A DNA stretch of 64,000 nt, from assembly GCA_963744795.1 (NCBI GenBank), contig CAVUVF010000018.1, positions 347,530 through 411,529 on the forward strand, given 5' to 3'. Each line of letters opens with the position of its first letter. The stretch's first letter is position 1. The DNA comes from an uncultured Acidobacteriaceae bacterium. GTDB lineage: Bacteria > Acidobacteriota > Terriglobia > Bryobacterales > Bryobacteraceae. The notes beneath the pieces were generated by a model, which saw nothing but the letters and a program-made list of their open reading frames with translations, made no database searches and was not told where the DNA came from. Both the position numbers and the translations under genes were made by a program. Of the stretch, positions 30,634-50,772 are shown piece after piece.

Positions 30634-30715
30634 GCTTGTTGCTAGAGAAGTGTGTCGAAACGTCTACTTGTCTCATCCAGCCCCAATCCAAAGGCTCTAA
30701 CCCATCCGAAAACGC

Positions 30716-31066
30716 CTAGGCGAAGCTGCGAACGGCTTCCGCTTCGTCGTCAAACACCTCAAAAACCGTGTAGAGCTTCGTAATCTGCAGCAGATCCTTC
30801 ACTCGCTTTGAGAGCCCGACTAATTTGAGCTGTCCGCCGCTGTTCGTCACGGTAGTAAAGCCGGACACCATCTCTCCGATACCGGAACTGTCGATGTAAG
30901 AAACGTCGCTCAAGTTCAACAGAACCTTCTTGTTGCCCTTGCTGACAATATCCCGGATGGTCTCGCGAAAATCGCTGGCTCCTTCACCTAAAGTGATCCT
31001 TCCAGCAGCATCGATAACGGCGACATCGCCAACCTGACGGGATGTCAATTTAACACTCACCTGCAC
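30716..31066 (-). CDS. STAS-domain anti-sigma-factor antagonist
   Basis: Intact 116-aa ORF. LNLSDVSYIDSSGIGEMV contains the conserved phosphorylatable Ser context. Confidence 0.85.
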   Translation of the reverse strand: MQVSVKLTSRQVGDVAVIDAAGRITLGEGASDFRETIRDIVSKGNKKVLLNLSDVSYIDSSGIGEMVSGFTTVTNSGGQLKLVGLSKRVKDLLQITKLYTVFEVFDDEAEAVRSFA

Positions 31067-31090
31067 TCCTCCTCTGCAATTTCAACGTAC

Positions 31091-31531
31091 TCACGCCTGA
31101 GCCCGGTTTTTCACGAGCCGTACTTCCGTTCCAGAGCCCGGACGGCTGTTAAGACTGAATTCATCGACAAACGTTCTCGTCAGTAGAAGCCCCCGACCCG
31201 ACTGGCGCATAAGATTTTCAGGAGCAAGCGGATCGGGCAATGAATCGGGATCGAAACCCGAACCCTCGTCCCGTATCGTGACAACGACGCGCTCCGGAGA
31301 ACGTTCGATATCTAGATGCACTTTCTTGTCCTGGCTGTATCGGTTCCCGTGTACAACCGCATTCACCATGCACTCGCGAACGGCCATGCCGAAGTGCACG
31401 AGTTCATCCTCATCCAATCCCAGGGATTGAGCCTTCCGCAGTGCCAATTCCTCGGCCTTGTCGACACTCTCCAGCGCCGAGTTCAGCGTCTCGTGGGTCT
31501 CATCCATTTTGCTGCTCTCGCATCGTGTCAT
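31091..31531 (-). CDS. Anti-sigma regulatory factor, Ser/Thr protein kinase (RsbW/SpoIIAB-like)
   Basis: Intact 146-aa ORF with an HATPase_c pattern: ECMVNAVVHGN, IRDEGSGFD, GRGLLL. Confidence 0.85.
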   Translation of the reverse strand: MTRCESSKMDETHETLNSALESVDKAEELALRKAQSLGLDEDELVHFGMAVRECMVNAVVHGNRYSQDKKVHLDIERSPERVVVTIRDEGSGFDPDSLPDPLAPENLMRQSGRGLLLTRTFVDEFSLNSRPGSGTEVRLVKNRAQA

Positions 31532-31715: not shown

Positions 31716-33824
31716 TTAGACGTTGCTTTCGCGGCCGCAGAACGTCTGGCCAGAACGGGCAAGTTCAACGAGTAGTGGCGCGGGTGCCCACAAATCGGAA
31801 CCAAACCGTTCTTCAAAGCCCTGGATTTTTTCGAGTACCGAATTGAGCCCCTCTAGATCCGCCCAGAACATCGGGCCGCCGCGCCAGGCAGGAAAACCAT
31901 AGCCGTGAACGAACACGACATCGATGTCTGACGCCCGTTGGGCCGTGCCCTCGGCAAGCACTCGGGCACCCTCGTTGACCAGACTGCAGATACAGCGGTC
32001 CACGATCTCCTCCCGGCTGATTCGACGTGGCGTCGAGCCCGGCTTCCGCGGCCGCTCGCTCCGCCAGCGAAGTGAGTTGTGAATTCGGCCGCGGTTTCCG
32101 GTCGCTCCCGTACTCCGACCAGCCGAGACCTGTTTTCTGTCCGAAATGGCCAGCATCGTAAAGTGCTTCCAAAACGCATCGAGCGTCGTACACCGGGCGG
32201 ATCCATCTGGCGGAACTGGTCTTCGATGTGGCGCGAGACGTCAATCCCTATGAGGTCGTCGACGGCCAGTGGGCCCATACTCATCCCGAACTGGACGAGC
32301 GCCTCGTTTACTTCTTCAACCGACGCGCCTTCCTCGACCAGAAATCTGGCTTCTCTCAGGTAGGGCCGGAAAATACGGTTCCCGATGAAACCAGGCCGAT
32401 TTCCGGCTAGAACCGCGATTTTGCCAAGCCGCTTGCCCAGAGACATGCATGTGGCGGTCACGCCGGGGTCGGTCTCGGCGCCGGGGACGACCTCCACGAG
32501 ACGCATGACATTTGCCGGGCTGAAAAAGTGAAGACCGATCGTTTTCTCCGATCGGCCGCTGCCCGAGGCAATCGCGTTTACGTCCAAGCTTGAGGTATTG
32601 GTGGCAAGAATGCAGTCCGGGCGGGCGGCTTTACCCAAGTCTTCCATCACCGCCTGTTTGACCGGAAGATTCTCAAAGACCGCCTCGACCACCAGGTCGA
32701 CCTGGTCAAAACCGCTGAAATCCGTTTGCGGGCGAATGCTTGCCAGGCGATTCTGGGCCACCTCCGGCGTCAGCCGATTCTTTGCTACAGCGCGGTCGAA
32801 ATTCGCTCGAATGTTCGCCATTCCCCGACCGAGCGCTTCGTTCGAAACTTCTTTGAGCAAAACCGGGAATCCGGACTGGGCGAAGGCGGTCGCGATCCCG
32901 GATCCCATCGTGCCGGCGCCCACGACGGCCACGCTACGCACCTCGTAGGCCTTCTCCTTGCCTGCTAAAGCCGGGACCTTGGCCGCGTTTCTTTCGCCAA
33001 AAAACAGGTGGATCAGCCCTTTCGATTCGCCGGAACGGAGGCACTGTTCGAAAAGCTCGGCTTCCCGCTGGACGCCGTTCGTCGAAAGAAAGCTCAGTGC
33101 TTGCCCATATCGCCTCCAGCGCGGCAGCAGGCGCTCGGGAGGGCCGAGCCTGTTCGACCCGCGCCTGAAGTGCTTCCAGCTTTTCGGCTTCACCCGGTCC
33201 GAACTTCGCGACGCGTTCGCGTGTTTTAACTGCCGTTTGCGCTGCTATCTCCCGTGCGAATCGGACCGCCTCATCCAGCAAAGCGCCTTCAATCACACGG
33301 TCAACGAGTCCGCAACTCAGTGCTTCTCGAGCACTGATCTGGCGACCTTCGATGCACATCTCCGCTGCCCGGACGGGTCCGACTAAACGGGGAAGCCGCT
33401 GAGTTCCTCCTGCGCCTGGAATGAGCCCTAGCTTCACCTCTGGCATGCCAAGTTGAGCGGTGGGAACTGCCAGGCGGTAATGCCCGCACATCGCGGTTTC
33501 GAGACCCCCGCCGAGCGCAGCCCCATGAATGGCCATGACAATCGGCTTGGGAGAGTCTTCAATCGCCTGCAAGGAGGGAAGGAGGTTCAACGGCGGAGCT
33601 TGCCCGGCGGCAATCCGGGCCAGTTCCCGAATGTCTGCGCCGGCGATGAAGGTATTGCCGGATCCGAGGACCACGATTGATCGGACGGAAGCGTTTGCGT
33701 TCAGATCGAGAACGGCGGAAGCAAGGCTCTCGGCGACTCTGGAACTCAGCGCATTGACAGGTGGGTTGTTGATCGCGATGACGCCAACGTCATCCTGCAA
33801 ACTCACTCGAACGAGTTCGTTCAT
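31716..33824 (-). CDS. Bifunctional enoyl-CoA hydratase / 3-hydroxyacyl-CoA dehydrogenase (FadB/FadJ-like), at least 3 frame breaks
   Basis: Crotonase region INNPPVNAL...FIAGADI...AIHGAALGGGLE and the HAD Rossmann fold VAVVGAGTMGSGIA...HFFSPANVMRLVEVV, with the C-terminal domain in ORFs 31813-32244 and 31716-32156. Confidence 0.85.
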
Positions 33825-33848: not shown

Positions 33849-34763
33849 TTATTCTCCGCGAAGCGGAACCGGGGCTTCCGGTAATTCCTCTTCACCCATC
33901 CCGTACCGCGAACGTCCTCGCCGCTCGCGATTTCCGCCCGGCCACTCGATCCTCAAATCACGGCAGACTTCGTCAAGCATGTCGAGCGTGGTTGACCTTT
34001 TCTCCATTGCGAACGCCGTAATGAGCAGATTGTCGCAAAGCAGGTTGATCAGGCGAGGGATTCCCCGGGATCTCACGTAAATTTCGTCCAGAACATCGAG
34101 CGGAAACACCGTCTGGTTCGGCATGCCGGCCCGGGCGAGTCTCGTTTCGATGTACGCGATCACTTCGTCAGGTGAAAGAGGGTCGAGCGTGCAGCGGAGT
34201 ACAATGCGCTGTTTCAACTGACGAAGATTGGAGGCGTCCAGCTTGCGGTCGAGTTCCGGCTGACCGGCCAGGATGATCTGCAGCAGCTTGCCGTGCCGGT
34301 TTTCCAGGTTGCCCAGTAATCGAATTTCTTCCAGTACTTCCCAGTCCAGGTTATGCGCTTCGTCCACGATCAGAGCGGTGGTTCTGCCGCGCTCAGCCTG
34401 TTGAATGAGCAGGGAGTTAAGGGCGAACAGCACTTCGGGCTTCGATTTCCGGTCGCATTGAAGGTCGAAATCGAAGGCCATCATCTCGAAAAATTGTTCC
34501 GGAGTAAGACGGGAATTGAAGATAAACGCAAACTCAATGCGTTGCGATTCCAGGTAATCCCGCAAACACTCGAGCATGGTTGTCTTGCCGGTTCCGACTT
34601 CGCCCGACAGTACGATGAAACCTTTCCGGCCTCGTACGCCGTAGATAAGATTTGCTAGTGCTTCCTCATGCTGAGGACTACGGTAGAGAAACTCCGGATC
34701 CGGACTGATTTCGAACGGGTTCTCGGCAAATCCGAAATACGCGTTATAGATCGCGCTTTGCAT
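33849..34763 (-). CDS. ExeA-like AAA+ ATPase (AAA_22; resembles PEP-CTERM/XrtA-associated ATPase, TIGR03015-like)
   Basis: Intact 304-aa ORF with FGFAENPFEISPDPEFLY, Walker A SGEVGTGKTT, Walker B LIVDEAHNL, ILAGQPEL and RGIPRLINLLCD. Confidence 0.8.
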   Translation of the reverse strand: MQSAIYNAYFGFAENPFEISPDPEFLYRSPQHEEALANLIYGVRGRKGFIVLSGEVGTGKTTMLECLRDYLESQRIEFAFIFNSRLTPEQFFEMMAFDFDLQCDRKSKPEVLFALNSLLIQQAERGRTTALIVDEAHNLDWEVLEEIRLLGNLENRHGKLLQIILAGQPELDRKLDASNLRQLKQRIVLRCTLDPLSPDEVIAYIETRLARAGMPNQTVFPLDVLDEIYVRSRGIPRLINLLCDNLLITAFAMEKRSTTLDMLDEVCRDLRIEWPGGNRERRGRSRYGMGEEELPEAPVPLRGE

Positions 34764-34869
34764 GTCTGATTAAACTCAACGAGCCGTGGAAAGGTACAGC
34801 GGCGTCTTACGAACCCCCGACACTCCCATCATAGAGGAATATCGGCAGTTCAGCCCCTAAGCTTTACCC

Positions 34870-36012
34870 TTAGGCGTCGAACTGAGCAATCGCCCAACCG
34901 GCCAAACTGGCTGGCTGCCCGCCTTTGAACACCACGCGGCGGGTTTTGGGAAAGATAGCGCCCTCGCGAAGTCCTCGACTCAAGCGCCGGAACCGTCCGG
35001 AGAATTTTCCGGAACGAATCCTGTTCGGTTTCGAGATAAGCGGATTTCGATACGAACCCACCGCCCCAGCCGAGGCAGAGCAAACAGCTGAGAGACGCCT
35101 CTCTGGCCTTGGCGAGTTCCTCCCGTAAGCGACTGACGGTGTTGACAATTCCGGAAAGCCCTGCGGTTTCGGCATAACGCCCCTGCGCCTCGATTTGGGC
35201 TTCGGCGAAGTCATTCGCCGCGTCCACGATCATCTTCGGGCTCGGCACGGAACGCCAGCCCAAAGCGCGCGCAATTTCCTGATTTTCGAGGAAGCTCCGT
35301 TCCTGCCAGGTGCCGGTGAACGAAGTACCCGGCGTAGCCATTTCCGCGAACAGAGGTGTGGCGTCGGACATTCGCTGGGGAGGGACGCTGCCCCTTCCGG
35401 TTACTTTCCAGGAGAGTTGGGGTTTCCCCCCTGCGCTGCGTTGACCGAGGCGGTCCGGGTTAAAAAGACCTTGAACGCTCCGTGCGGAATCGGCTCGCTA
35501 TCCGAGAGGGAAACTACTTTCGTCTGACTGGCGCCAGCGGAGCTTTCGGCTGCTTCGCTCACCCGGCGTGGCAAACGATCGTTCTCAAGGGACGACGCCA
35601 TGCGATCAATGGTGGCCTGGGACCAACGCGAATGCACCAATCCCGAGCGCAGAGCGCCTTTGAGGGCCGAAGCGGGGAGATAAGCCCCCCGGTAGCTGGA
35701 AGCAAATGTCGGAATAAATAGTACTTCCGAAGGCGTGGCGTTCCAAATGGCGGTGGAGTCCGCGTGCTCGAACGGAATTCGACGTTGCGAAAAATTCTGA
35801 GCAAAGCCGCCCCACGAGGCGAAATCCAGCTTGGTGGCTTTCCGTAATTGGTTCAGGTAGCCCTCTAGTCGGGGACCTCGCGCCAGCAATTTGAAAATCC
35901 TGTTTTGATCGAGTACGTTGACCTGGTCCTTCCAGACCATGTAATCGATCGGGGACAACGCGCGCCCGTCCCCGACGAGCAGTGGCGTAAGCGCGGTGAC
36001 TTTATACTTCAT
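34870..36012 (-). CDS. csm5: Type III-A CRISPR RAMP protein Csm5, frame breaks near 35420 and 34980
   Basis: N-terminus MKYKVTALTPLLVGDGRALSPIDYMVWKDQVNVLD, PASALKGALRS, Gly-rich loop LGWGGGFVSKS, and after a frame shift FPKTRRVVFKGGQPASLAGWAIAQFDA. Its ATG at 36012 overlaps the preceding coding frames. Confidence 0.8.
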
Positions 36013-37435
36013 CGTTACCCTGCCCAGTGTCCTCGGTCGTTTCCTTCGCTCCCTCTTCGGCGACGGTCCCCTCGGTTGTTTGCTCGACTTGCTCCGCCGT
36101 TGTTTCCGGCTCTGGAGCCGCCGACGGTCTCGCCAGCGTCGGCCGGCAACTGCTCCGGCTCCTGGCTCACGTCCAATTCGGCTTCGGCGGAGAGCGTCGG
36201 AACTTCAATCTCGCCGGCCGATTCGGACCGCTCTGATTGGGAAACGGCCGCGGTCGGCGGCTCGCACGGCGATAACGTTTCCGGCTCCTCTGCGCGTGCC
36301 TGCTCCCTCAGGAGTATCGGAAAGCGCAGTCTGCGGCGTCGTTTCCACTGCCCCTCTCCAGCGCGTGGGTGCCTCGGCGAACGGGAGCTTGCAGGTGAGG
36401 GCGAAGCCCGCACGGTAAACGGGATGAGAGAAGTTTTCCGGGGCCACGTCGACCGCAACCCCGACCGGTTCGTCTCGTACGGCCAGCACGGAACCTTCGG
36501 CGATCATCCGCAGCGCCTTTTTCGCAGCTCCGCTTCCCGCCCGGCTATCTACGTGTCCGTTTCGAGAGGTCAGCTGATAATCGCCGCTGCTCCAATCGAC
36601 GGAATCTTTGGGCCCCGGGGAATAGAGAGAAAGGAGCCAAAACAAAGGGGCCTGTTCACTTTCGGTTCCGGGCTCGGGCCCGCCGTCCGACGCTCCCGCG
36701 ACTTTGGGAAGGAGCAGCCTGGGCCAGGATCCGCTTTCGAATTCAGGGGCGGCCGTTTGTCCCCAGCCACTGCTCCGACGGCCTCCGAAACCCGTATCGG
36801 CGAGCAGCCGGAAGGCTCCGCGCACTCGTTCTCCCCACGTTGCTTCCGCGTTCTCATCCGCAAAACGCGCAACACCCCAGAGGCCCGCGCCGTTCTCGAA
36901 TTCGATGCACGCGATACTGCGCGCCGTCCCTGACGTTTCGCTTAAGCGGTCGACCCCGGCACTCGTCCGACTCGAATAACGAAACGGGCTTGTGCTCGGG
37001 CGGTCGCGCCGCAAGAGGCATCCGCTCTCTCCATCAACGATCCACTGGTCCGCCAATAGAGGCTGTGACAACAGCAGCGACTCGGTTAACGGACAACGGG
37101 ACGTACTGCGCCGCCGCCCAACGCATCTTGGACAGAAACACCGGACTTGGGCTGGTCAGCAAAGAGGCCGGAGGCGGCCACACGGTAGCCGGAGGCGGAG
37201 CAAACAGCGTGTCCCCTTGAAACGGAAACAATGAACTGAAGACAACCGCCGGAGTCGGACTGAGCGCTGTCGCTTCGAGCCACTCCGAAAGCAAGTCGAG
37301 GTGCTGCATGGCGAGCGTGACCGCTGAATACAGGCGGTCGCTTCGAAATGCGCTCTCGACTTGCCCTTGACCGATTCCAACTCCGCAGCGCCACGGTCCG
37401 AGCGGACGCAAGCGGATAACGACAGCCGGCTGCAT
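36004..37435 (-). CDS. csm4: Type III-A CRISPR RAMP protein Csm4 (Cas5 family) plus an acidic low-complexity C-terminal tail; frame breaks near 37090 and in 36110-36400. The core may end at 36205.
   Basis: N-terminus RLRPLGPWRCG...AFRSDRLYSAVTLAM and Gly-rich loop LLADTGFGGRRSSGWGQ. The ATG at 37435 abuts the csm3 stop (TAAATG). The tail reads EEPETLSPCEPP...EIEVPTLSAEAELDVSQEPEQLPADAGETVGG, then PEPETTAEQVEQTTEGTVAEEGAKETTEDTGQGNDEV. Confidence 0.75.
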
Positions 37436-38272
37436 TTAGGCCAGTTTTTCTCCGAAGTCGTCGGCAGCGACGAGTTGCTGCAAGGCTGCCAGTTCCGCGC
37501 CTGAAACAAGCGTGCTCTCGCTCGCTCCCTTCCCGTAGTAATCCTTGCTGCGCCAGGAAAGAGTCAGCGAGCCGAACGAGATGCGTCCGCTTCCCCGGCT
37601 GCCGCCCCCGCCGAGCGAATCGTCTTCGAGCAAGCGAAGCGCCTCGGGGATCCGCGCCACCAGCGGTTTGTCTTCCGGACACAGTACATCGAGAACCATG
37701 CGGAACCGGAATCGTGCGCCGGCGGGAACACGCTCGAGGGTGCGCGGATTCGCCTGAGACGTAATGCGATCGACGGCGTTCTCGCTCTTCACTTCGGTGA
37801 GTTCGTCATCCAGGTTTTCGCGCATCTGCTGCGTGATGCTGTCGAGAACCAGGGGCGAGTCGTAGACCGTGAGGCGTGCCGGCGTGGCAGCGGCCGATTC
37901 CGAGGCTTCACCACCAGACACTTTCTCCACGCGCGCGGGGCTTCGGCCAAAAAGGAGACACACTTCGTCGTCCGGCCGATCGCTCTGGTGGATGCGTACT
38001 TCCTGTCCGCGTCGTTTCGACACGTAAACAAGTTCATTCGGTACGGTGAGCCCAAGCGATTGCTCGAGCAGGCTGCGCAAACGCCCGCGAAGTGAACTGC
38101 CCGGAATGTAGGGTACGCCGAACGCATCTTTGACTACGGGATTGTCGGCGCCGCCGATTTCGAGCGACCCTTTACCGGCGCCGATATGGAGGCCGGTCTG
38201 GCACTGAATCTCGCCTTCGAGAATCAGCTTTCCAAGGAACGTCAGTTGCGTTCCTGCAGTATGAGAACTCAT
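37436..38272 (-). CDS. csm3: Type III-A CRISPR RAMP protein Csm3 (Cas7 backbone subunit)
   Basis: Intact 278-aa ORF with GLHIGAG, IGGADNPVVKD (Asp43 at the expected catalytic position), IPGSSLRGRLRS, LLFGR, TEVKSENAVDR and LGGGGSRGSGRISF. Confidence 0.9.
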   Translation of the reverse strand: MSSHTAGTQLTFLGKLILEGEIQCQTGLHIGAGKGSLEIGGADNPVVKDAFGVPYIPGSSLRGRLRSLLEQSLGLTVPNELVYVSKRRGQEVRIHQSDRPDDEVCLLFGRSPARVEKVSGGEASESAAATPARLTVYDSPLVLDSITQQMRENLDDELTEVKSENAVDRITSQANPRTLERVPAGARFRFRMVLDVLCPEDKPLVARIPEALRLLEDDSLGGGGSRGSGRISFGSLTLSWRSKDYYGKGASESTLVSGAELAALQQLVAADDFGEKLA

Positions 38273-38311: not shown

Positions 38312-38848
38312 CTATTCGTTGTAAGCAATGATGGCCTCGAACAGGTCACGGAACCGTTCGTAGCCGCGCGTATCGTTTTTGCGTGTGACCTGAAGCAATA
38401 GACGTTCGAGAGCATCGAGACTGCGGAGCGAGTGCCGCGCAATGGTGTACGCAAGACGCGCGCGCACCATCACGAACTCGTGTTGCCGTTCCGATTCGGG
38501 GGTTCGGGTTGCTCGCCGTACGGCATTGTAGAGACGCCGAAGCTGACTCTTTGTGCCGGAATCCATGTCGCGCATTCTGCTGACAACGACGTGCGCCTGA
38601 TTGTCCAGATAGAGACTATCGGAGATCAGCTTTTCGAGATCGATTTCGGGCGGTCCCTCGGGTCTGCGGTCACCGCCGCCCGGCCGGCCTCCTCCTCCAC
38701 GATTCTCGCGTCCGCGATCGCCCCGGCCTTCTCCGGATCCGCGTTCGTTGCCGCCGCGAGGACCTCCGCCGCCGGGCCGGCCTTCGCGTGGAGGCCGCGA
38801 TTCGCCCGAACGCCGCTCGTCGCCCTTCTTTTCTTCAGTTTCTGCCAT
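38312..38848 (-). CDS. csm2: Type III-A small subunit Csm2 (Cas11) with an Arg/Gly-rich N-terminal extension
   Basis: The C-terminal 105 aa or so fit Csm2: TKSQLRRLYNAV, ARLAYTIAR, FRDLFEAIIAYNE. The SD-like GGAAGGTGAT lies 4 nt before ATG 38848, so the GTG at 38857 given by the ORF track is a less likely start. The first 70 aa or so are RG/RGG-rich. Confidence 0.8.
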   Translation of the reverse strand: MAETEEKKGDERRSGESRPPREGRPGGGGPRGGNERGSGEGRGDRGRENRGGGGRPGGGDRRPEGPPEIDLEKLISDSLYLDNQAHVVVSRMRDMDSGTKSQLRRLYNAVRRATRTPESERQHEFVMVRARLAYTIARHSLRSLDALERLLLQVTRKNDTRGYERFRDLFEAIIAYNE

Positions 38849-38872: not shown

Positions 38873-40336
38873 CTAAACGCTCTCGCCTGCTGCCAATCGC
38901 GCCCACTCCAGACCAACACGCCCCGATGGGCGTAGCTTCACCGCGTTTGTTCTTTTACCGATCAAGCTGTTGATCACCGCGTTGCGCACATTGTTTACTT
39001 CTTTCCCTCGCGACTGAGGGATAACCCTGGCGAGCCGCATATAGGTCCGCCACGGCTTGTCGACCCGGGCCGCCTTTCTACGCGGGGAGCGAACGGCCGT
39101 GCCCTCGCGATAGACCGAGGCCAGATCATAGATGTATTGCGGCGGATATCCGAAATCGCGAACGAGTCTGACCAGGCTCGACTTCAATTCCTCCGCGTCG
39201 ACCAAGCGCTTCCACTCGAGAGTTCTGCCGAAAAGCGAGAATGTCCCCGGTTCCGTGGCCTTTGCCTGTCGCAACTGCGAAATGGCCGTTTGTAACACGG
39301 CGCCGATGGCTTCGCTGCCCTCGGGAGCGATGGCCAAAGACATACTGATGGTTTTGCCCTCGAAAGCCGACGCAGCCTGTACGTTCTCGCCGGCAAACTT
39401 GTCGAACAGTCGCTGAAGCTCACGCGCGAGCAGAAGCAGGGCGTCCCAGGAGCCCACGACCGCAAAGTCGTCGCCGCCGAGATAGACCACCGTCACTTTG
39501 CGCCAGAAATCCGGGAGTGTGCCGAGCAACGAAAGCTCACCGGCGAAAAACTCCTTGAACATGACGGAGAGATGAATGTGTTCTTCGGCCGTCCCGGCGC
39601 TTCGGAGCAGCGCGTCGAAGTTATCGACATCCCCGATCAGGATTCCCCATCGCGCTCTGCCGTCCGCTCTCTCTGCCAGTTGCTGCAACGCCAGGACCTG
39701 GCCCTCGTCGCTCATCGCCGTCCGGCGCGGGAACACAACCGCATCTTCAGTAAGGCTCGATTGCTCCTTGAGAGGCCATGAATACTGGCTTCCTTCCCAC
39801 TGGAGTTCCCCTGGGCGTTCAGAAGACCAGCCCACGCTCGACGCTGATACGACTCCTGCGGCAAATTGCGAGAAATAAGACGATACCGACTTCCCATCCT
39901 CGGTTGCAGACAGAAATGCAGTTACACTCGCTTCCCTGGACAGCGGTGCCGATCGAAAAGTAGATAGCGCATCATCCAGCCGCTTCCGCACTACCGGCCA
40001 CGCACCCAGATCCTCCGTGCTTGCCCAGATCAGCCGAAGATGATCCCCGGAAATGTCCGAAACCGCAGTTGCTGCGCGATTCAATAGTTCGTTGGCGCGG
40101 GGAAGATCTTCTTCCGTCAGAACCAGAAGAAACTGCTCGGAGCTTGCCGAGCCAAGGAGCATGCGAGATAGCTTCAGCTCGGCGAGGAGCGCACGCGGCA
40201 AGACTTCGCAGAAGAGACTGAGCCACGCGCACCGGCCCCGGAAGCTCAAAAGGGGGTCTTCATTGATCGCGGGCTCGGCAGCGAGAAAGTCGTTTCCACC
40301 AATCAGGTGGGCTTGCAAAAAGACCTGCAGCGACAT
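38873..40336 (-). CDS. cas10: Minimal Cas10 (Csm1-like) with GGDD cyclase palm and no HD domain
   Basis: Intact 487-aa ORF. GGDD (YLGGDDFAVVG) is encoded at 39467-39478. Palm Asp box WGILIGDVDNF, and a C-terminal helical D4-like region. It heads the csm2-csm5 operon. An in-frame TAA at 40451-40453 and the divergent gene at 40579 exclude a hidden N-terminal HD domain. Confidence 0.8.
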   Translation of the reverse strand: MSLQVFLQAHLIGGNDFLAAEPAINEDPLLSFRGRCAWLSLFCEVLPRALLAELKLSRMLLGSASSEQFLLVLTEEDLPRANELLNRAATAVSDISGDHLRLIWASTEDLGAWPVVRKRLDDALSTFRSAPLSREASVTAFLSATEDGKSVSSYFSQFAAGVVSASSVGWSSERPGELQWEGSQYSWPLKEQSSLTEDAVVFPRRTAMSDEGQVLALQQLAERADGRARWGILIGDVDNFDALLRSAGTAEEHIHLSVMFKEFFAGELSLLGTLPDFWRKVTVVYLGGDDFAVVGSWDALLLLARELQRLFDKFAGENVQAASAFEGKTISMSLAIAPEGSEAIGAVLQTAISQLRQAKATEPGTFSLFGRTLEWKRLVDAEELKSSLVRLVRDFGYPPQYIYDLASVYREGTAVRSPRRKAARVDKPWRTYMRLARVIPQSRGKEVNNVRNAVINSLIGKRTNAVKLRPSGRVGLEWARLAAGESV

Positions 40337-40578
40337 TGGAGAGGGATGGGCGCGCGCAAAACGAGCGGAATATGCGTTGTTAAGCGAGAACGCTATCAGC
40401 CTAGCACAGTGATGAAACCGGTCAGCTCGGCAGAGCTTTTGTTGCTTCGCTTACTTTTGACATCGGGTACAGTGGCAGTTCCAGGGCGCCCCAAGTGATC
40501 TCTCGATCGGGAACGTCTCAGCCAAAATCCCGCCCTAGCCGTCGCGTCCATGCATGGTCTGACCTCTATGCTTGAGAA

Positions 40579-41328
40579 ATGATCGTTTTTGTCACAGGAG
40601 CAACGTCGGGCTATGGGCGGGCTACCGCCCAGGCATTTATTCGGAGCGGCGCCAAAGTAGTCGGAACCGGGCGGCGCGGGGACAGGCTGCAAGAACTCAA
40701 GAAGGAATCGGGCGACAACTTTCTTCCTTTGAGCTTCGATGTCAGTAAGCGTGCCGAGGTGGAATCAGCCATCGCGAGCCTTCCGGAAGGATTTCGCGAA
40801 GTGGATGTGCTGGTTAACAATGCTGGCGGCGCACTTGGCCTCGATCCCGCTCAGACCGCCGATCTGAATGACTGGGACGCGATGGTCGACATCAACATCA
40901 AAGGAGTGATGTACTGCACGCGGCTGCTCCTCCCTGGAATGGTCGAGCGAAAACGTGGGCACATCATCAATCTCGGATCTGTCGCTGCTGAATTCCCGTA
41001 CCCGGGCGGCAACGTCTACGGCGCGGTGAAAGCCTTTGTGCACCAGTTCAGTTACAACTTGCGTTCCGATCTGCTCGGTACAGGCATTCGCGTCACTGAC
41101 ATTCAACCCGGACTGACCTCGGATACGGAATTCTCGAAGGTCCGGTTTAAAGGCGACGAGGAAAAAGCCGCAGCCATTTACAAGGGCGTCAAGGCTCTAA
41201 GCGCCGACGATGTCGCTGACGCGATCCATTGGGTAGCTACACGTCCGCAACACGTCAACATCAACGTGGTCCAGATGATGGCGACAGCGCAGGCGTGGGG
41301 ACCGTTCGCGATCCACCGCCAGAGCTAG
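40579..41328 (+). CDS. SDR-family NAD(P)-dependent oxidoreductase (YdfG-like)
   Basis: Intact 249-aa ORF with VTGATSGYG, NNAG and catalytic YGAVK. Confidence 0.9.
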   Translation: MIVFVTGATSGYGRATAQAFIRSGAKVVGTGRRGDRLQELKKESGDNFLPLSFDVSKRAEVESAIASLPEGFREVDVLVNNAGGALGLDPAQTADLNDWDAMVDINIKGVMYCTRLLLPGMVERKRGHIINLGSVAAEFPYPGGNVYGAVKAFVHQFSYNLRSDLLGTGIRVTDIQPGLTSDTEFSKVRFKGDEEKAAAIYKGVKALSADDVADAIHWVATRPQHVNINVVQMMATAQAWGPFAIHRQS

Positions 41329-41347: not shown

Positions 41348-42354
41348 CTAGATACCGCGTTGTGGCCGATAGCCCGGCCGGGCGCGTACCTTGTATTTCT
41401 TCATTGCTTCCGGGAGCAGCTCGATGTGCAGTTTCCGGAAGCCCTCGTTCGGATTCGGTTGCGGATAGTACGTGACGGTGTAGCTGTTGCCCAAGTCCTC
41501 GCGGATTGACTCGAACGCTTCTACCTGCTTCTGCCAGGTCTTGGCGAAGTAGCTCTTTCCACCCGTGCTGTTAGAAATCCGTTTGAAGATGCCGCTCGAG
41601 ATGGGATCCTTCGTGACCTCATTCGTCGAGATCACATATATCGGGATACCTTCGTCCTCGGCTACGGCCCGGACATCGTCAGGAGCAACCATGCTTGCGT
41701 TATCCGGCCCGTTCGAAAAGACTATGACTACTTTGCGCCCGGGTACTTTTGCCGCATCGCGCAGAGTCAGAAGCAAGCAGTTGTACAGCGCCGAGTCGTC
41801 GCCCGCTACCGCTTTTCGCAAGCCCGAGATGGCAAGTGCGCGATCCCGATTGAGTGAAACAGCCCGGTTCAGGTTGCGGCTGTACGTGTAAACGGCAATC
41901 GAATCGGCGCGGTCCAGACCGCGGATGAAGTCAGCGATCGCGTCCGAAGCGTACACGAATCCGCGATACATATAGTTGCTGGTATCGAAAAGGACGAAAA
42001 CGTTCGTTCCCGTGGCTTCAGACCGAAGATCCACTACTCGTCCGCCCCCTCCGTCTCCCGGGTCGCCGGCGCGCAGAGGCCGCGTTTCTCCCGTTTCGAG
42101 CACCTGGACCGGTGTGCGGTTACCTTCCGCGAACGTGGCGAGCTTCTGATTGATATCGTCCTCGTAAATCTTGAAATCCTTGGGCTTGAGCCCGTTGACG
42201 TATTTGCCTTTCGTATCCGTAACGGCAAAGCTCAGCACGACCATGTCCACCTTCACGTGGAATGTGGTCTGGTCCTGCTCTTGCGCATAGAGCCACGCAC
42301 CTGCCATTCCAAGCAGTACGGCAGTAGCAATAAGGGTGCGAACAGTTTTACTCA
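41348..42354 (-). CDS. VWA-domain protein of the acidobacterial VWFA type (TIGR03436-like), secreted
   Basis: GTG at 42354 gives the signal peptide VSKTVRTLIATAVLLGMAGAWLYAQ. The sequence then reads FHVKVDMVVLSFAVTDTKGKYVNGLKPKDFKIYEDD, with the VWA/MIDAS region VFVLFDTSNYM. The longer ORF reaching 42547 overlaps the upstream gene. Confidence 0.8.
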
Positions 42355-42365
42355 CAGTTTCCTTT

Positions 42366-45300
42366 TCAGTTCCCGGACGGCCGCGAAACCGAAGCTCTCT
42401 CGCTCTGGTGTCTGATGTTATTACCCGTCGTCTGTAATGACCGCAAAATTGCCGGCCAGTCTTCAAGATGAGTCGCGAAGATATTTTCGATCGTCGAACG
42501 ATTCCACTCGGGAATATAGGTCTCAAGCGCACCCACCGGCGTAGCAATTTCGTCGGCTAGCGCAGCATAGTACAAGTTGTTTGACTCCCACGTTTCGGCA
42601 AGTATCCGGCTCGAGTACCCCATAAGAGCCGGGAACGTTCGGAGCATGAGAAGGCCGGGCGTGTAGGAATGAGTTAAGGTCGGCTTTGGCGTTCCGAAAA
42701 CGCGGCCGATGGCTTCGGGCGAAACAGAGCTTGCATTCTGTTCTTTCACCGCGGCGATCTGGCGGGACGCTAGATCCGGGGCGACATTTGCCAGAGCGGG
42801 ATCTTCTCCGAGCGCGTAAAGAATCGCGGTTGGCACCTCCGCAATCACTTTAGAAAAGCTTTCCGACTGCAGGTGATCTCCCAGCCATTCCACTCGCCCC
42901 GGAGTCGAGTACCGCTTGTACGCGTCCATCACGGGAGCCTGAACGGCAGGATCAAGGGCAGCAGCCGCAATGAGATTCTTGCCGCGTTGAACGTTGAGAG
43001 CAACCCATCGAAGTTGCTCCGGTTTGACGTTGCGCCACCGGTTGATGGTGACGTTCGCAATCATCTGCGGGACAAGATCAGCCCAGATCAAAGCTTGTTC
43101 GCGGGTGGGGCTTAGAAAGTTCTGTTCGGCTTCGGCAATCGCATACGGGAGAGAAACCAGCGATCCAATCAGCCTTCCGCCCGCGCTGACGGGCCATCCC
43201 CCGCTGGACACTTCGGTATTCCGCCATGCCGCGGGTGAACTCTCCGGGCCGACAAAGTCATGAGCCCGGACAAACTGCGGATTCGTCAGGAGCAACTGAG
43301 CGCCGGACGGCGCGTAATAGCTGTACAGCAGGCCAACAAGAGAGTCGCGAAGGAAAGGAACGAGAGCGTCCTTCATCTCCCGCTTCTCCGAACCTCTTAG
43401 CATCCGCTCCAGGTTGAATTTGCGTTCCTGTTCGATATGACGATTGCTCCAATACCCGAGCGAGAACGAATTTTTCTCGTCTTGAGACAGAGATCCGCGC
43501 GCCGCCTCCGATTCCTCCAAGCGTTCGAGCTGGTCGGTGACGCTCTTCATCGTCTTGGCATCGACGCTGCCCTTCTTCTCGGCTAGAGCGAAGAGGCTGT
43601 CGACCGGAATGAGCCGCTGGGAATCGAATACCCGCAGGAACGTATCGGTCGGTGATGCCGGGCCGTTTCCCCCTGAACTGCGGAGCGGGCCGATCAGGAC
43701 TTCCGTAATCTGCTTTTGCCGCGAGCCGCCAGCCGAAGCGCCTGATGCGGAAGCAAGCAACAGATCGATCCCTGATTTCCCGGCGTCGAATAAGTCGCCT
43801 TGTGCGCGTATGTGGGCGAACGGAGTGATCAGCTTCGTGAAAACCGTATCTCTCGATCCGAGCGCGATCGCGTCCCGATGGGAAAGGATCCGGAAAAGCT
43901 CTGTGTTGGCCTGGAAGATACCGAGAGTGTCTGCGCGAAGAAGTACGTCCCGTATGGAGTTAATGTCGCTCGCGGTATCAAGGTAACGATTGATAGCCGC
44001 CTCAGACAGGAACGGTGAGTCCGCAAACAACGGATACTGTGCTCCGTACGCCCGGAAGCTGCTCACCATCCGCGAAGCGAGCGCTGGAGACATCGGCGCA
44101 GTTCGGGCGCGATCCACGTCGCTCAGTGTGAGGAATATCCGGAGCGGCTCATTCTCCACTGTTTTCCGGCTTAATGCGAAAAGCGCCTCGAGTACATCGT
44201 CGTTCGACCGCCACGACGTTGCAGATCGAGTGAGCTTGCCATCGTACTTCCCATGCGGATGTTTGATGAAAAGGTTTTTCCAGACGTCGATGTTCCCGGG
44301 GATATGCGGTTGTCCATTCGGGTCGATCCGCAGCGAGGTTGTCAGCAGCATCAGTTCGGTGCTCGAGCGGAAAACCGGACGCGCAGGACCGGGCGTCGTG
44401 ATCTTTCCTCGTAGCGCATCGTAGAAGCGGCGCAGCCGCTCCGGCTGAGTCAGATACGCGGCCGTTGGTCCGCTGATGCGGGACAGAGCATCGAAATAGC
44501 TGGCAGCCCAACCGTCATCGGTGGCCAGCAGCTTCTCATAGAAGGCGCCCGCATTCGACGGAGAAGTTCCCACCAGACTGCCCCAGGTCCGAGCCGGGCC
44601 TGGCACGACGGCTGCTCCGTTCTGGATCTGAAACATACCTCCGTAAAAATCGAGAACACCGGCGTACAGTTTCAGCCTCGGTGCAGGCATCTGCTTCCGG
44701 AGCGCTTCGGCCGTGGCGCGATCTATATGAGACAAGCCGAGATAGAGGCGGCAAAGTGAAGGGTCAGACAGGAACGCATCGATAAACTCCGGCTGATTTG
44801 TGCGGCCCAGAGCACTCATCCAGTAATCGGAGCCGTACAGGACGGGAATCTGCGTCGGCGCGTACGGAAATTCGAATTTGCGGTTGGCCCGCAGGTCCTG
44901 TTCGAGTTGCGCGATGGGAAATCCCGAGTCAACCGTCAGGAACGCTTTGGTCGGGTTCACCGTCTCGAGCACAATGTCGCCTCCGCAGGATCCGCGCATC
45001 CGATATCCGAGCGCCTTCAGAAGGGCGCCGGTCTGCTCGCTGTCGCATTGAGGGATGACGATCGTACGGGTGTTGCCTGTCAGGCTCTGGATTTCTCTGG
45101 CCTGCGCCAGATAGCGCACAACCAGGCGAAGATATTCGGTCTGTTGAAGCGCCTCGTTGCCCGAGGCCTCATAACCATTCGTGACGATATTTCTGGCCAG
45201 GGCCGGAAGCAGTTCTTCCGGAGCGAGATCCGGCGAAAGGGCCGCCATGCGCGCGAACGACGAGAGCGGACCCGGAATAGAGATCATCTTTGCCTGTGCC

Positions 45301-45691
45301 GGCTTTCGCTGGCTTAGCCGGTGGGCGAAGGTTGGTGCCGCCGGCCTCGCGATAGCGGCTTAAGATCAGCGGTAAGATCGGCTTCTCTGCCGTCGATGTA
45401 GTCGTCGAGCACGACTTGGCGGAGAGCTTGCTGCCGCCGTGCCGGATCGCTCTCGCCTTCCGCCCATTTCAGGTACGCCTGACGGCTTTCCCGAATCCCA
45501 TGGCGCTCCAGAAACTCCGCGAGAGCCTCTGCGCCGCCTGTGTTGCCGGCCGTACCCGTGCTTTGCTCGAGCAACGCTCGAGCTCCGCTCAAGTCACCGC
45601 TCGCCTCTCGTTCCAGCGCCTGTGCTGCTCAGGCTTGCGGTCGTGTCGGCCAGAACTGGCGAAACAAAAAGGAACGTAATACAGGTCAGAA
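42366..45691 (-). CDS. Large (about 1100 aa) conserved hypothetical secreted protein. 42366-45287 is intact; the N-terminal 130 aa or so are reconstructed across 2 frame breaks.
   Basis: Intact 973-aa ORF with no family I recognise. Upstream fragments on the same strand are 45314-45592 and a signal-peptide-like start MVTVLTCITFLFVSPVLA (ATG 45689-45691). Confidence 0.5.
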
Positions 45692-47418: not shown

Positions 47419-47949
47419 CTATCTCCAGGCCTTTAGCGTCTCTTTCCGATTCGTCTGGCCGGGGCGGAACAGCGTGTCGAGCACGAGACAAGCGGCCCCG
47501 ACGGTAATGGCGCTGTCCGCGACATTAAACGCCGGGAAACTCCAGCCGCCGTGAAACACCTCAATGAAGTCGGTTACCGTTCCATGCATGATGCGGTCGT
47601 AAAGATTGCCGCCCGCGCCGCCCAGAATGGCCCCAAGAGCAAGAAAGTTGACCAGTTGCTTCGTCCGTCACACTGCGGATCCAGAGAGCAGCCACAACAA
47701 GACACATGACGAGAAAGGAGACACCTATTAGGATGAGTCCCCGGAACGCCGGGTTGCCATCCGCCAGAACTCCGAATGCAGCGCCCGGATTCTCAACGTG
47801 AACAATGCGCAAGAAATCCGGAATCACCGGAATATTGTCGAACGGGCTTAAGCCGTGCTGGATGTACAACTTGGTCAGGCGGTCGAGCACGACTACCGCA
47901 GCGCTCAAAGCCAGCGCCCAAACCCGCTTCGTGGTCAATGGATTTGCCA
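47419..47949 (-). CDS. lspA: Lipoprotein signal peptidase II, frame break near 47640
   Basis: [30 protein letters not shown] and [14 protein letters not shown]. The GTG at 47947-47949 lies 2 nt after the ileS stop. Confidence 0.8.
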
Positions 47950-47951
47950 CG

Positions 47952-50772
47952 ATTAGCTGAGGAAGTCCGGCAGTACCGCTGCACACCGGGCGCAAACAGT
48001 CGGGAAATCGGAGTTGCTTCCGACATCCGTCGTGTAGCGCCAGCATCGCTCGCACCGGTCGCCTCGGGCGCGTTCCACTTTCACCGTCAGTTCCTGGCGT
48101 TTGACCGAGCGCAAGAGTCACGTCGGAGGTGATGAACCACATCGGCAGTTCGTCCCTGAAACGTTGCAGCAGCAGAAATTGTTCTTCGCCGGCTTCGAGA
48201 TGAACGGTCGCTTCGAGCGAAGATCCGATCACCTTGTCTTCGCGCGCGCTGTCGAGTGCTTTCAAGACGCGTTCGCGAATCGGGAAGCAGCCGCTCCCAC
48301 TCGGCTGCGAGTTCGCGCTGCTTTGGAGTGAACCCAGCCGTCAGATCTTCCGGATTCGGGAAGTAGTCAATGTGAACGCTTGAAGCCGCCGTGCGGTCGA
48401 ACTTCATATAGCCCCAAACCTCCTCGCATGTGAACGACAGGATCGGGGCGAGCAGTCGAACAAGCGCTGCATTCATCCGGTACAGCGCTGTTTGAGCACT
48501 CCGGCGTAGCGGCGAATTCGGTCCCGCCGTGTAGAGGCGGTCTTTCGAAACGTCTACGAACAGCGAACTGATGTCAGTGATCGCGAAATCGTACACGGCC
48601 CGATAGACCTTGTGGAATGCGTACTCCTGATAGTGAGCGAGGCAGCTCTTCACCAGCTCTTCCGTCCGCGCCAGCATCCAGACGTCAAGCGGGGTCAGCT
48701 CTCCCGCGGCAACCTGATCGGTGGCAGGATTGAAGTCCGAAAGATTTCCCAGCATGTACCGGAAGGTGTTCCGGAGTTTCCGGTAGGCTTCCGAAAGCCG
48801 CGTGAGGATGACGTCGGAAAGCCGAACGTCTTCGGTGAAATCAACGGAGGCAACCCAAAGCCGGAGGAGATCGGCACCGTACTGCTTTACGATTTTCTCG
48901 GGTTCGATCGTGTTGCCGAGCGACTTGGACATGGCCCGGCCTTCGGCATCGAGCGTCCAGCCGTGTGTCGCGCATTCGCGATAAGGCGCTCCGCCGCGCA
49001 GGCCAACGCCGATCAGCAGTGAACTATGGAACCAGCCGCGATATTGGTCGCCGCCTTCGATGTACATGTCCGACGGCCAAGGCAGGCCGTTTTCGGGCGG
49101 TCAGAACCGCAAGATGGCTGGATCCCGAATCAAACCAAACGTCAAGAATGTCGTTTTCGCGCCGGAAATTCGTGCCGCCGCACTTTTGCACGCGCAGCCT
49201 TCACCCATCAATTCGCTGATCGTTTCCGAATACCAAACGTCCGCGGTCTTCTCGCGGAACTTTGCGACCACCCTTTCCAGAACGCTCTTGTCCGTGAAGG
49301 GCTCGCCGCAGCCTTCGCAGTAGAAAACAATGATCGGAACGCCCCAAACGCGTTGCCGCGAGATGCACCAGTCGGGCCGAACCGCAATCATGTTCGAGAT
49401 GCGTTCCTCGCCCCATTCGGGATGCCACTTTACGGTTTTGATCGCTTCGAGCGCACGGGTTCGTAGCGTCTCCCGATCCATGCCGATGAACCACTGCTCC
49501 GTGGCTCGGAAGATGACAGGATTATGGCAGCGCCAGCAGTGTGGATAGCTATGTTCTATCCGGACTTGGGACGCAAGCGCTCCGTGCTCCTCGAGCAGCC
49601 GGATCGACGATCGGGTTGATCTCCCAAACCGTTTTGCCGATCAGTTCTTCGGGCAACACGCCAGAAGCCCCTTCGGCGCGGAAGATGCGACCCGAGGCAT
49701 CGACCGGACAATAGACGGGAAGCCCATATCGCTGTCCGATAACGAAGTCTTCCTGACCATGTCCGGGCGCAGTGTGTACGGCTCCGGTGCCCTGTTCGAG
49801 CGTGACGTGGTCGCCCAGAAGGCCAAGCGAATCTCTGTCGAGGAACGGATGCCGGAAAACGGCGCCTTCGAGCCTTGTGCCAGGAAAACGAGCGACGACC
49901 GTCTTATCCCAGCCGAGCGCTTCTGATACCTGGTCGAGCAAGCCTTCGGCGACAATCGTCAGGCCTTGCGGCGTGTCTACAACCACGTATTCGAACTTCG
50001 GATTGAAACTGATCGCAAGGTTTGCCGGGATGGTCCAGGGCGTGGTTGTCCAGATCAGGCAGTAAACTTCGCGCCCGGCCAGGCTCGGATCCAATGCTGC
50101 CGGATCTGAAGTAAGCCGGAAACGGACATAGATGGACGGACTGGTGTGATTCTCGTATTCGACTTCCGCTTCGGCAAGAGCTGTGCGGTCTTTGATGCAC
50201 CAGTGCACCGGCTTCAGACCCTTGTACACATATCCGCTATGCAGAAAGTCCACGAACGCCTGAGCGATGACTGCCTCATACTCGGCGCTCATCGTCAGGT
50301 ACGGATTGTCCCAGCGGCCGAGCACTCCCAGCCGTTTGAACTCCCGCCGGTGGATGTTGACGAAATTGGATGCGTAGGTCCGGCACTCGGCGCGGATCTG
50401 TGCAGCGCTCATCGACGCTTTGCGTTTTCCGAGTTCCTGATCGACTTTGAATTCGATGGGCAACCCATGGCAATCCCAGCCCGGCACATAAGGAGCATCG
50501 AAGCCAGCCATGCTCTTCGACTTCACGATGAAGTCTTTCAGGATCTTGTTGAACGCTGTGCCGAGGTGGATATTTCCGTTTGCGTAGGGAGGTCCATCGT
50601 GCAGAACATACTGCTTTTTTCCCTGTCGGGCTTCCCGAATGCGCTGATAAAGGCCAGTGTTCTCCCACTGCTCGAGCAGCTTGGGTTCGAGCACGGGCAA
50701 GTTTGCCTTCATCGGAAATGAAGTTTTCGGTAGGTTGACCGTCTTCTTCAGGTCAACGGAAGTTGCATCCAT
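47952..50772 (-). CDS. ileS: Isoleucine--tRNA ligase, at least 4 frame breaks (about 49520, 49090, 48270 and 48050)
   Basis: HIGH region [28 protein letters not shown] region [10 protein letters not shown] and a C-terminal Zn-finger CARCAAV. Pieces are 49549-50772, 49101-49494, 48087-49067 and 47561-48265. Confidence 0.9.

Follow-up and report, generated by a model that had tools for sequence, protein, structure and literature searches.

Which functions remain to a Cas10 protein of 487 amino acids (aa) that keeps its cyclase palm and has neither an HD nuclease domain nor a zinc (Zn) finger, and with which partners could it work? The question is raised by the cas10/csm1 gene found in a 64-kb stretch of DNA from an uncultured Acidobacteriaceae bacterium (contig CAVUVF010000018.1 of GenBank assembly GCA_963744795.1, placed by GTDB in the Bryobacteraceae), hereafter called the window. 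An earlier note, made from the letters of the window alone, had described the gene as a minimal, cyclase-competent Cas10 and had seen a functional puzzle in the lack of a nearby effector responsive to cyclic oligoadenylate (cOA). All coordinates are positions in the window, in which cas10 and the csm genes lie on the minus (-) strand.

The answer favoured here is that the gene encodes a functional, reduced Cas10/Csm1, which would work within a stand-alone, five-gene Csm operon of the Bryobacteraceae derived from type III-A, with guides and a signal receptor supplied in trans. Taken as a whole, this reading is given about an even chance, and its parts are of different strength.

Architecture and family of the short Cas10

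The gene and the domains of its product, numbered in aa and in nucleotides (nt), are as follows.
38873..40336, (-) strand: cas10/csm1, short form; intact, with an ATG start and 487 aa
39950..40327, (-) strand: Palm1, aa 4-129, from the model and hhalign
aa 130-225: Cys-free linker, which replaces the Cys4 treble clef
aa 226-365, (-) strand: Palm2, with GDVD at nt 39623-39634 and GGDD at nt 39467-39478
aa 366-487, (-) strand: helical D4 domain, from the model and hhalign

Profile searches and a structural model, taken together, show the predicted protein to be a Cas10/Csm1 composed of Palm1, a Cys-free linker, Palm2 and D4. Pfam recognizes Cas10-Cmr2_palm2 (PF22335) at aa 230-361 (1.2e-16; 61.5 bits against a cut-off of 27) and, weakly, domain B of Csm1 (Csm1_B, 0.0045) at aa 31-91; the Csm1 profile TIGR02578 is matched over positions 484-730 of 753 (1.4e-36). 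Searching the sequences of the PDB with Cas10 returned matches solely to the Palm2 of Csm1. An AlphaFold2 model based on 146 sequences of the family reached a predicted local distance difference test (pLDDT) score of 86.7 and a predicted template modelling (pTM) score of 0.88, and replaced an earlier run on 23 sequences (pLDDT 73) in which the N-terminus was poor and mostly helical. The newer model shapes aa 4-129 into a beta-alpha-beta-beta-alpha-beta-alpha palm (pLDDT ~90), after which come a linker with some disorder, the second palm (about aa 226-365) and a C-terminal domain made of helices. When it was compared with the PDB by Foldseek, the top 50 matches were all type III-A Csm1 chains (best E 4e-19, query-normalised TM 0.74). 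The same colinear order was obtained with hhalign against nine full-length Csm1 proteins (probability 100, E 1.1e-44), which places window aa 6-484 on Csm1 271-780, Palm1 on Csm1 271-400 and D4, whose model helices span aa 375-483, on the very end of Csm1, its terminal W..A/E motif included. The structure prediction, the Foldseek comparison and the profile alignment had all been proposed in the earlier note; they recover the Csm1 fold, with no degeneration of the Palm2 active site.

The same alignment defines what is missing. The first ~260 residues of Csm1, which bear the HD domain, have no counterpart in the short protein, and the Zn-finger cysteines C423, C426, C437 and C440, all four invariant in Csm1, map to a poorly matched stretch between the palms that is Cys-free in the window. 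Pfam, hhalign and Foldseek agree on a protein reduced to the polymerase/cyclase core, as the earlier note had proposed. The motifs on which that proposal was based were found again in the intact 487-aa open reading frame (ORF): GGDD at aa 287-290 (nt 39467-39478) and, upstream of it, the Asp box GILIGDVDNF at aa 231-240, within which GDVD occupies aa 235-238 (nt 39623-39634). The whole protein holds four histidines and two cysteines, C36 and C43, both in helix 1 of Palm1, and no HD dipeptide occurs anywhere in its 487 aa. Further upstream, an in-frame TAA at 40451-40453, 39 codons 5' of the ATG, and a divergent gene bound the locus and leave no room for an HD-coding segment.
40579..41328, (+) strand: SDR (YdfG-like) gene, divergent from cas10, at the locus boundary

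A search by tblastn and by a profile hidden Markov model (HMM), both derived from the N-terminal 265 aa of the nine full-length Csm1 proteins, gave no match above the noise level in any reading frame across the 64-kb window, so that neither an HD remnant nor a fusion to an upstream HD-encoding segment, the outcome that would have contradicted the earlier note, was found. All the facts that the earlier note had given on the gene proved correct.

The short form is shared by a large family. Protein searches revealed more than 250 near-full-length relatives of 470-500 aa, down to ~45% identity; the 240 relatives among the matches listed (120 per search) are nearly all 470-510 aa long and start at the same MS(L/V)Q. 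They form two layers. Clade 1, to which the window protein belongs, comprises at least 120 relatives at 60-94% identity, found among 5.8 billion proteins and nearly all of 483-510 aa, most of them labelled in databases as Csm1 or as "Cas10/Cmr2 second palm domain-containing protein". Clade 2 was found by an exhaustive HMMER scan of 50%-identity representatives and consists of likewise short proteins (457-494 aa) that are 36-47% identical to the window protein; a search seeded with this second layer added at least 120 further proteins of ~480 aa, whose few taxon labels are all Bryobacteraceae. Full-length Csm1 proteins (737-810 aa) rank only after these short layers, with 26-34% identity and an alignment that begins at about residue 195 of the window protein. 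All relatives that carry a taxon label come from Bryobacteraceae or other Acidobacteriota. In a survey of one genome per GTDB species, a clade-1 relative was present in 127 species-level genomes, and the 80 loci retained from it all belong to metagenome-assembled genomes of Bryobacteraceae, Bryobacterales or Terriglobia.

Because the relatives share both the length of 470-510 aa and the MS(L/V)Q start, the shortness of the window protein is not a matter of chance or truncation. Truncation through a sequencing or assembly error was considered and is ruled out by the hundreds of relatives of the same length and start from independent assemblies, and by the lack of any HD remnant. Selection points in the same direction: the ratio of nonsynonymous to synonymous substitution rates (dN/dS) of Cas10 is 0.06-0.09 across seven pairs (0.08 for the window against the related locus L003), that of Csm3 is 0.02-0.06, and that of the flanking SDR and VWA genes is likewise 0.02-0.06. 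The Cas10 family is under strong purifying selection and is neither an artefact nor a pseudogene. Pairwise Cas10 distances also follow those of the flanking core genes (Pearson r 0.62-0.85), as strongly as they follow those of the partners in its own operon, a pattern that fits co-inheritance with the chromosome.

A partly conserved cyclase active site

When the residue roles established for L. lactis Csm1 (PMC11417356) are transferred to the short Cas10, its two palms behave differently. In Palm2, D236 and D238, which correspond to L. lactis Asp520 and its neighbour, are invariant in 146 sequences; S257, the equivalent of Ser546, is invariant in 146/146; Y285, the equivalent of Tyr572, is Tyr in 128/146; and G287-G288-D289-D290 form the GGDD motif, with the counterpart of Asp577 and with G288 invariant in the 146 sequences. 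In Palm1, the position of the Mg-binding Asp253 is taken by His10 in the window, by Gln in most of clade 1 and by Lys in clade 2. The position of the adenine-binding Ser277 is Cys36 in the window and Ser in most of clade 2, and that of Tyr304, the aromatic residue before GGGHF, is Ser63 in the window. The GGGHF turn itself reads SSEQF in the window; most clade-1 proteins have SAEQF there, and clade 2 has GGGQF.

The degeneration of the palm active site that the earlier note had named as the result that would speak against it was not observed in Palm2, where D236, D238, S257, Y285 and GGDD are kept. Its description of the protein as cyclase-competent is plausible only: the residues for metal and donor ATP are present in Palm2, whereas the acceptor residues of Palm1 have become His10, Cys36 and Ser63. 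From this residue pattern, nucleotidyl-transfer chemistry is very probably retained in the window Cas10, and the synthesis of a nucleotide signal is plausible. Since three acceptor-site residues are replaced, ATP as the acceptor and cOA as the product cannot be assumed. Cas10 proteins that make SAM-AMP (S-adenosylmethionine-AMP) reportedly illustrate how changes at the acceptor site can alter the product. The short Cas10 would offer a comparable natural experiment on an altered acceptor pocket.

Among the 258 near-full-length members surveyed, the exact GGDD motif is found in 86/118 sequences of clade 1 and 114/132 of clade 2, while GGED or GGDE occurs in a further 19 and 2 sequences, respectively. 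A non-acidic residue stands in the motif in 13/118 (11%) clade-1 and 16/132 (12%) clade-2 proteins (GGDG, GGDN, AGDG, GGQD, GGND, GASD and GLGE), the rest of the protein being still conserved. This distribution suggests repeated loss of catalysis in certain lineages of the family.

Such losses raise the possibility that Cas10 is a signal-dead scaffold, which would merely hold Csm4 and the 5' end of the CRISPR RNA (crRNA), so that RNA cleavage or binding by Csm3 would be the sole action of the complex and GGDD would persist for folding or by recent ancestry. The family-wide replacement of the Palm1 acceptor residues agrees with this proposal, as do the conserved remainder of the 11-12% of members without an acidic GGDD residue and the lack of a linked receptor gene. 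It is opposed by the invariance of D236, D238, S257 and G288, by the Tyr kept at position 285 in 128/146 sequences and by the ~88% of members that retain both acidic GGDD residues despite divergence to 45% identity. As the acidic pair is preserved over so deep a divergence, the pattern is hard to explain without catalysis, and a purely structural role is regarded as unlikely.

The csm operon and its missing CRISPR partners

The short cas10 is the first gene of a co-directional operon in the order cas10-csm2-csm3-csm4-csm5, and PADLOC models for Csm2-5 also match.
38312..38848, (-) strand: csm2 (Cas11 small subunit); Pfam Csm2_III-A 9e-10, TIGR01870 above cut-off
37436..38272, (-) strand: csm3 (Cas7 backbone RNase); TIGR02582 200 bits against a cut-off of 90
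36015..37435, (-) strand: csm4 (Cas5); TIGR01903 above cut-off, in at least three frames
34870..36012, (-) strand: csm5 (Cas7-like); fragments match TIGR01899, in three frames

The true start of csm2 is the ATG at 38848, which is preceded by GGAAGG. Across the family, conservation of the C-terminal 115 aa of its product exceeds 90%; the N-terminus, of low complexity and variable, forms an Arg/Gly/Glu-rich, RGG-like disordered extension of 70-90 aa (38650-38848) that is atypical of Cas11. Csm4 in turn ends in an acidic, Pro-rich tail (~36015-36370), atypical of Cas5, whose length differs greatly among species. In Csm3, the catalytic Asp of the motif GGADNPVVKD is invariant in 75 loci. Strong constraint acts on all five genes of the operon.

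In the favoured reading, the Csm complex (Cas10-Csm2-Csm3-Csm4-Csm5) would bind a guide RNA and base-pair with a target RNA, which Csm3 would cleave. Target binding would activate Palm2 and lead to a nucleotide signal instead of DNA cleavage. Both the guide RNA and the receptor of the signal would come from elsewhere in the genome, because no array, Cas6, CARF or SAVED gene is linked to the operon in 163 loci, and the product may differ from standard cOA, given the remodelling of the acceptor site in Palm1 (Asp to His/Gln/Lys, Ser to Cys, Tyr to Ser).

The state of csm4 and csm5 in the window could be taken to mean that a type III-A locus is being lost here, with cas10 truncated at its 5' end, csm4 frameshifted into at least three frames and csm5 into three, and no array left. 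In csm4, the frame shifts lie near 37088-37091 and 36290, and in csm5 near 35428 and 34983. Nevertheless, the same short Cas10 occurs beside intact csm4 (359-587 aa) and csm5 (~380 aa) in ~70 related loci. After frame correction, the window fragments of csm4 (dN/dS 0.07-0.09) and csm5 (0.02-0.06) contain no stop codons, and in the comparison with L003 dN/dS stays within 0.02-0.09 over both genes. Core genes of the window are split across frames as well: IleRS (48087-50772, in the pieces 48087-49067 and 49549-50772), the FadB-like enoyl-CoA hydratase/3-hydroxyacyl-CoA dehydrogenase (31716-33824), the dGTPase-like HD protein (28007-29126), LspA (47440-47896) and a conserved protein of ~1100 aa (42384-45622). 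The clearest uncompensated indels sit in short runs such as GGGGGG, TT or AA. As IleRS and other core genes share the defect, errors of sequencing or assembly, such as long-read assemblies show, are the most likely cause of the frameshifts in csm4 and csm5; cas10 is unaffected by them. Pseudogenization of the locus is rejected as the main reading in view of the intact csm4 and csm5 elsewhere, the low dN/dS and the split core genes, and decay of a former III-A system is correspondingly very improbable. The window appears to come from an indel-prone assembly, and any pseudogene call within it therefore calls for caution.

The partners that a type III-A complex would be expected to have nearby were sought in the window and in 163 non-redundant related loci (at most 10 kb per flank, 2.4 Mb in all). 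No CRISPR array was found in the 64-kb window, and a k-mer search for spaced repeats found none within 10 kb on either side of the operon in the related loci. Two matches of the repeat scan were rejected as arrays. One is a coding low-complexity repeat in csm4; the other is a perfect, spacer-free 45-bp tandem repeat of 3.8 copies (L108:19460-19628), situated ~8 kb downstream of cas10 where the contig ends. Thirty of the larger window ORFs (~16-62 kb) were scanned with Pfam, which revealed no cas1, cas2, cas6, CARF or SAVED gene and only housekeeping and regulatory genes, including IleRS, LspA, Lgt, cysteine synthase, NUDIX, dGTPase, a FadB-like protein, an anti-sigma module and a sigma-54 activator. 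When 2100 ORFs of the related loci were clustered all against all, likewise no shared family resembling cas6, cas1/2 or CARF/SAVED emerged; the clusters common to differing contexts are those of Cas10 and Csm2-Csm5 only, plus an ExeA/GspA-like AAA_22 ATPase in a subset.

Around the operon, the two clades differ. The gene order IleRS, LspA, Lgt, ~1100-aa protein, VWA, SDR, csm operon and ATPase is conserved in clade 1, and the SDR gene directly adjoins cas10 in 39/78 clade-1 loci; the flanks of clade-2 operons are very diverse. In the window, a protein of 973-1130 aa without a Pfam match (42366-45287, -) is followed by a VWA-domain protein (41348-42547, -), and this pair is syntenic upstream of the SDR/csm block in most clade-1 genomes.

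Two further features were identified between cas10 and the SDR gene.
40398..40408, (-) strand: extended -10-like element TGTGCTAGGCT (TGnTAGGCT), the most conserved non-coding block upstream of cas10
40337..40397, (-) strand: structured 5' leader of the csm operon with two stem-loops, from RNAalifold and pair counts over 74 loci

In all clade-1 loci, the element takes the form TGTGYTAGYCT, whichever gene lies upstream, and the whole block runs through TGTGYTAGYCTGA, stem-loop 1, GCCCGC-loop-GCGGGC, CGCYACGACC and 7-10 nt to the ATG. At this position clade 2 shows one of TGnTACAGT, TGGTACATT and TGCTAAAGT, and then a short leader. Across the 74 loci, hairpin 1 is 69% paired and hairpin 2 is 95% paired, with compensatory changes in 6/6 of its pairs and a covariation score that 0/500 shuffles reach; stem-loop 2 is shortened in the subclade of the window. 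A simple sigma-70 scan upstream of cas10 found no -35/-10 pair, no Shine-Dalgarno sequence is evident in the leader, and a search of the locus against Rfam gave a single spurious match (E 0.34) and no meaningful score. We infer that the shared element is an extended -10 promoter, and since clade 2 shares the -10 box and the short leader, a promoter with a structured 5' untranslated region (5'UTR) is the simplest reading of the block. A solitary CRISPR-repeat-like element was also considered, given the hairpin and its CGCYACGACC tail; that idea draws on resemblance alone and is speculation. The first ~30 nt of the cas10 coding sequence are themselves unusually conserved at the nucleotide level.

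The observations on the genomic setting bear on a second explanation, in which the Csm complex has been exapted from defence. Once domesticated, it would load non-CRISPR or heterogeneous RNAs and serve in RNA surveillance or regulation; the Cas10 signal could address a receptor that is not recognizable as CRISPR-associated, and the leader could be an autoregulatory site or a source of guides. Such a role would account for 163 loci without an array, cas6, adaptation gene or effector, for the synteny of clade 1 with core genes (IleRS-LspA-Lgt...SDR) and for dN/dS values and divergence that resemble those of neighbouring core genes. It would also agree with a large family of which every labelled member is acidobacterial, with the conserved promoter and covarying leader hairpin, and with the unusual disordered tails of Csm2 and Csm4 and the remodelled acceptor pocket. 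A precedent exists in type IV-B complexes, which assemble on non-CRISPR RNA (PMC7937560). However, this evidence is negative and contextual, and the absence of arrays holds for the loci, not for whole genomes. Clade-2 operons occur in many contexts, as mobile defence genes do, and the family retains the catalytic Asp of Csm3 and the GGDD motif, like ordinary interference complexes. No candidate gene for a guide RNA was found at the loci, and the leader hairpin is read most simply as a regulatory element of the 5'UTR. Exaptation is for these reasons considered the main rival explanation, possible and rather doubtful. A more specific version, in which the Bryobacteraceae have domesticated an array-independent, vertically inherited Csm complex that would use non-CRISPR RNA (its own leader or other transcripts) and emit a non-canonical signal in a housekeeping or stress role, is somewhat more tentative still.

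The reading of a functional III-A-derived complex served in trans has to be weighed against several observations of its own. The TIGR02578 score of Cas10 (126.5 bits) stays below the equivalog cut-off of 170, and conservation is lacking at the Palm1 acceptor residues Asp253, Ser277 and Tyr304 (numbered as in L. lactis). About 3% of Cas10 proteins in general are predicted to be inactive (PMC12669027); set against this figure, the 11-12% of non-acidic GGDD motifs imply that catalysis is not indispensable everywhere in the family. The in-trans part would draw on precedent only, as neither a guide RNA, an array, a Cas6 nor a receptor was found at the loci. Finally, a defence module that depends on arrays of sporadic distribution would not be expected at a conserved chromosomal site, evolving family-wide in the manner of core genes.

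What follows from the choice between these explanations can be stated for each. If an array-free function proves true, this would be the first case of a type III effector complex that has become fixed on the chromosome throughout a bacterial family as an RNA-guided machine of a non-adaptive kind, and the short Cas10 would be the smallest natural two-palm Cas10, of help in dissecting the roles of the HD domain and the Zn finger and in engineering compact type III sensors. If arrays and receptors are used in trans instead, the family would offer a well-populated and strongly constrained test case for the sharing of components between type III loci. In either case, the family-wide conservation without arrays makes the questions of the guide and of the target of the signal directly testable.

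Downstream of csm5, one neighbour recurs often enough to deserve attention.
33849..34763, (-) strand: ExeA/GspA-like AAA_22 ATPase, 304 aa; Pfam AAA_22 3e-26

Its score with TIGR03015 (PEP-CTERM-associated ATPase) is 293 bits, just under the cut-off of 324.5, and a PDB sequence search with the ATPase gave no match. The gene adjoins csm5 in 66/69 clade-1 and 12/30 clade-2 loci, and one clade-2 locus whose flanks differ encodes the protein with 71% identity. The intergenic stretch between csm5 and the ATPase (34764-34869) carries a conserved promoter-like motif, TTGCCGAT.AT...TATGATGGGAG, and the ATPase evolves more slowly than the csm genes. A role as obligate sixth subunit or effector is not established, given the 12/30 of clade 2, the promoter-like motif of its own and the slower evolution; on this genomic evidence, the ATPase is a frequent neighbour of the csm operon with putative relevance only. 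A few kb further downstream lies a partner-switching module (30292-31531, -) with a HATPase_c_2 anti-sigma-like kinase, a STAS anti-anti-sigma protein and a response-regulator receiver fragment; no linkage of this module to the csm operon was seen in the other loci.

Comparison with known systems

The closest relatives of the window system are the canonical III-A Csm1 proteins (T. onnurineus 6MUR/4UW2, L. lactis 9ASH and S. thermophilus 6IG0), which give the best structural and profile matches and share the Palm1-Palm2-D4 order, the Palm2 constellation GDVD...S...Y.GGDD and the operon with Csm2-5. Unlike them, the short Cas10 is devoid of the first ~260 aa (HD and linker) and of the four-Cys Zn finger; the GGDxSGIQ motif of the canonical Palm1 is lost family-wide, and GGGHF is lost as well in the clade of the window. 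Canonical III-A loci also differ in their linked array, Cas6 or Csm6, and TIGR02578 falls below its cut-off in the window protein. The absence of an HD domain is in itself common: a recognizable one is present in only 39% of all Cas10 proteins and in 65% of those of type III-A, for which it is thus typical without being a defining feature, and an effector is absent in 133/1113 loci (Hoikkala et al. 2024, PMC11229360). For type III loci in complete genomes that are without effector and HD domain and positive for the cyclase, the use of components in trans has been proposed (PMC11229360). The HD-less, cyclase-positive Cas10 proteins of types III-B and III-D (e.g., T. thermophilus Cmr2) and the 133 loci without effector resemble the window system in the missing HD domain, the retained cyclase motif and the missing effector. 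Those III-B and III-D proteins, however, stand in a Cmr or III-D context, generally keep the Zn finger and come from typed CRISPR-Cas loci, whereas the window system combines III-A (Csm) partners with a Cas10 of ~490 aa and has no array in any sampled locus. With regard to the puzzle posed in the earlier note, no CARF or SAVED gene was indeed found nearby, but cyclase-positive loci without an effector are already a recognized class. What that first reading missed is the absence of arrays and cas6 from 163 loci, the purifying conservation of the whole family and the poor sequence quality of the window.

Among the reductive type III systems, types III-G, III-H as well as III-I (PMC12669027) are similar in that they are without adaptation modules, and III-G is array-less. 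The direction of the reduction is nevertheless opposite: in III-G as in III-H, the cyclase is inactivated or lost and the HD domain is retained, while the window system has lost HD and kept Palm2. In addition, the Cas7 aspartates of III-G and of III-H lack conservation, whereas the Csm3 Asp of the window family is kept. Type III-I has lost the N-terminal cyclase domain and carries a Cas7-11i fusion, whereas csm3 and csm5 are separate genes in the window. Type IV-B Csf complexes (PMC7937560) form a Csm-like Cas7/Cas11 filament, encode neither an array nor an RNA-processing subunit and assemble on non-CRISPR RNA; they possess no Cas10 or cyclase, the homology is remote, and the likeness to the window system is one of functional analogy only.

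A last comparison is offered by P0259 (527 aa, L167:202-1785), from another metagenome, an HD-less Csm1 that starts at Palm1 and is encoded in a csm operon, where csm2 follows its gene. It keeps GGDVSGIQ, GGGHF and a CxxC...CxxC Zn finger and is ~29% identical to the window protein; as the two are unrelated in their HD-less form, the HD domain has been lost from III-A-like Cas10 proteins more than once. A description of the Bryobacteraceae family of short Cas10 proteins was found neither in the literature searched nor in the text of the 2025 classification paper (PMC12669027), whose Zenodo data may list the family. Type III loci devoid of HD domain and effector were known before, and that part of the puzzle is not new; what is new here is the loss of the Zn finger, the absence of arrays and the maintenance of such a system across a whole bacterial family.

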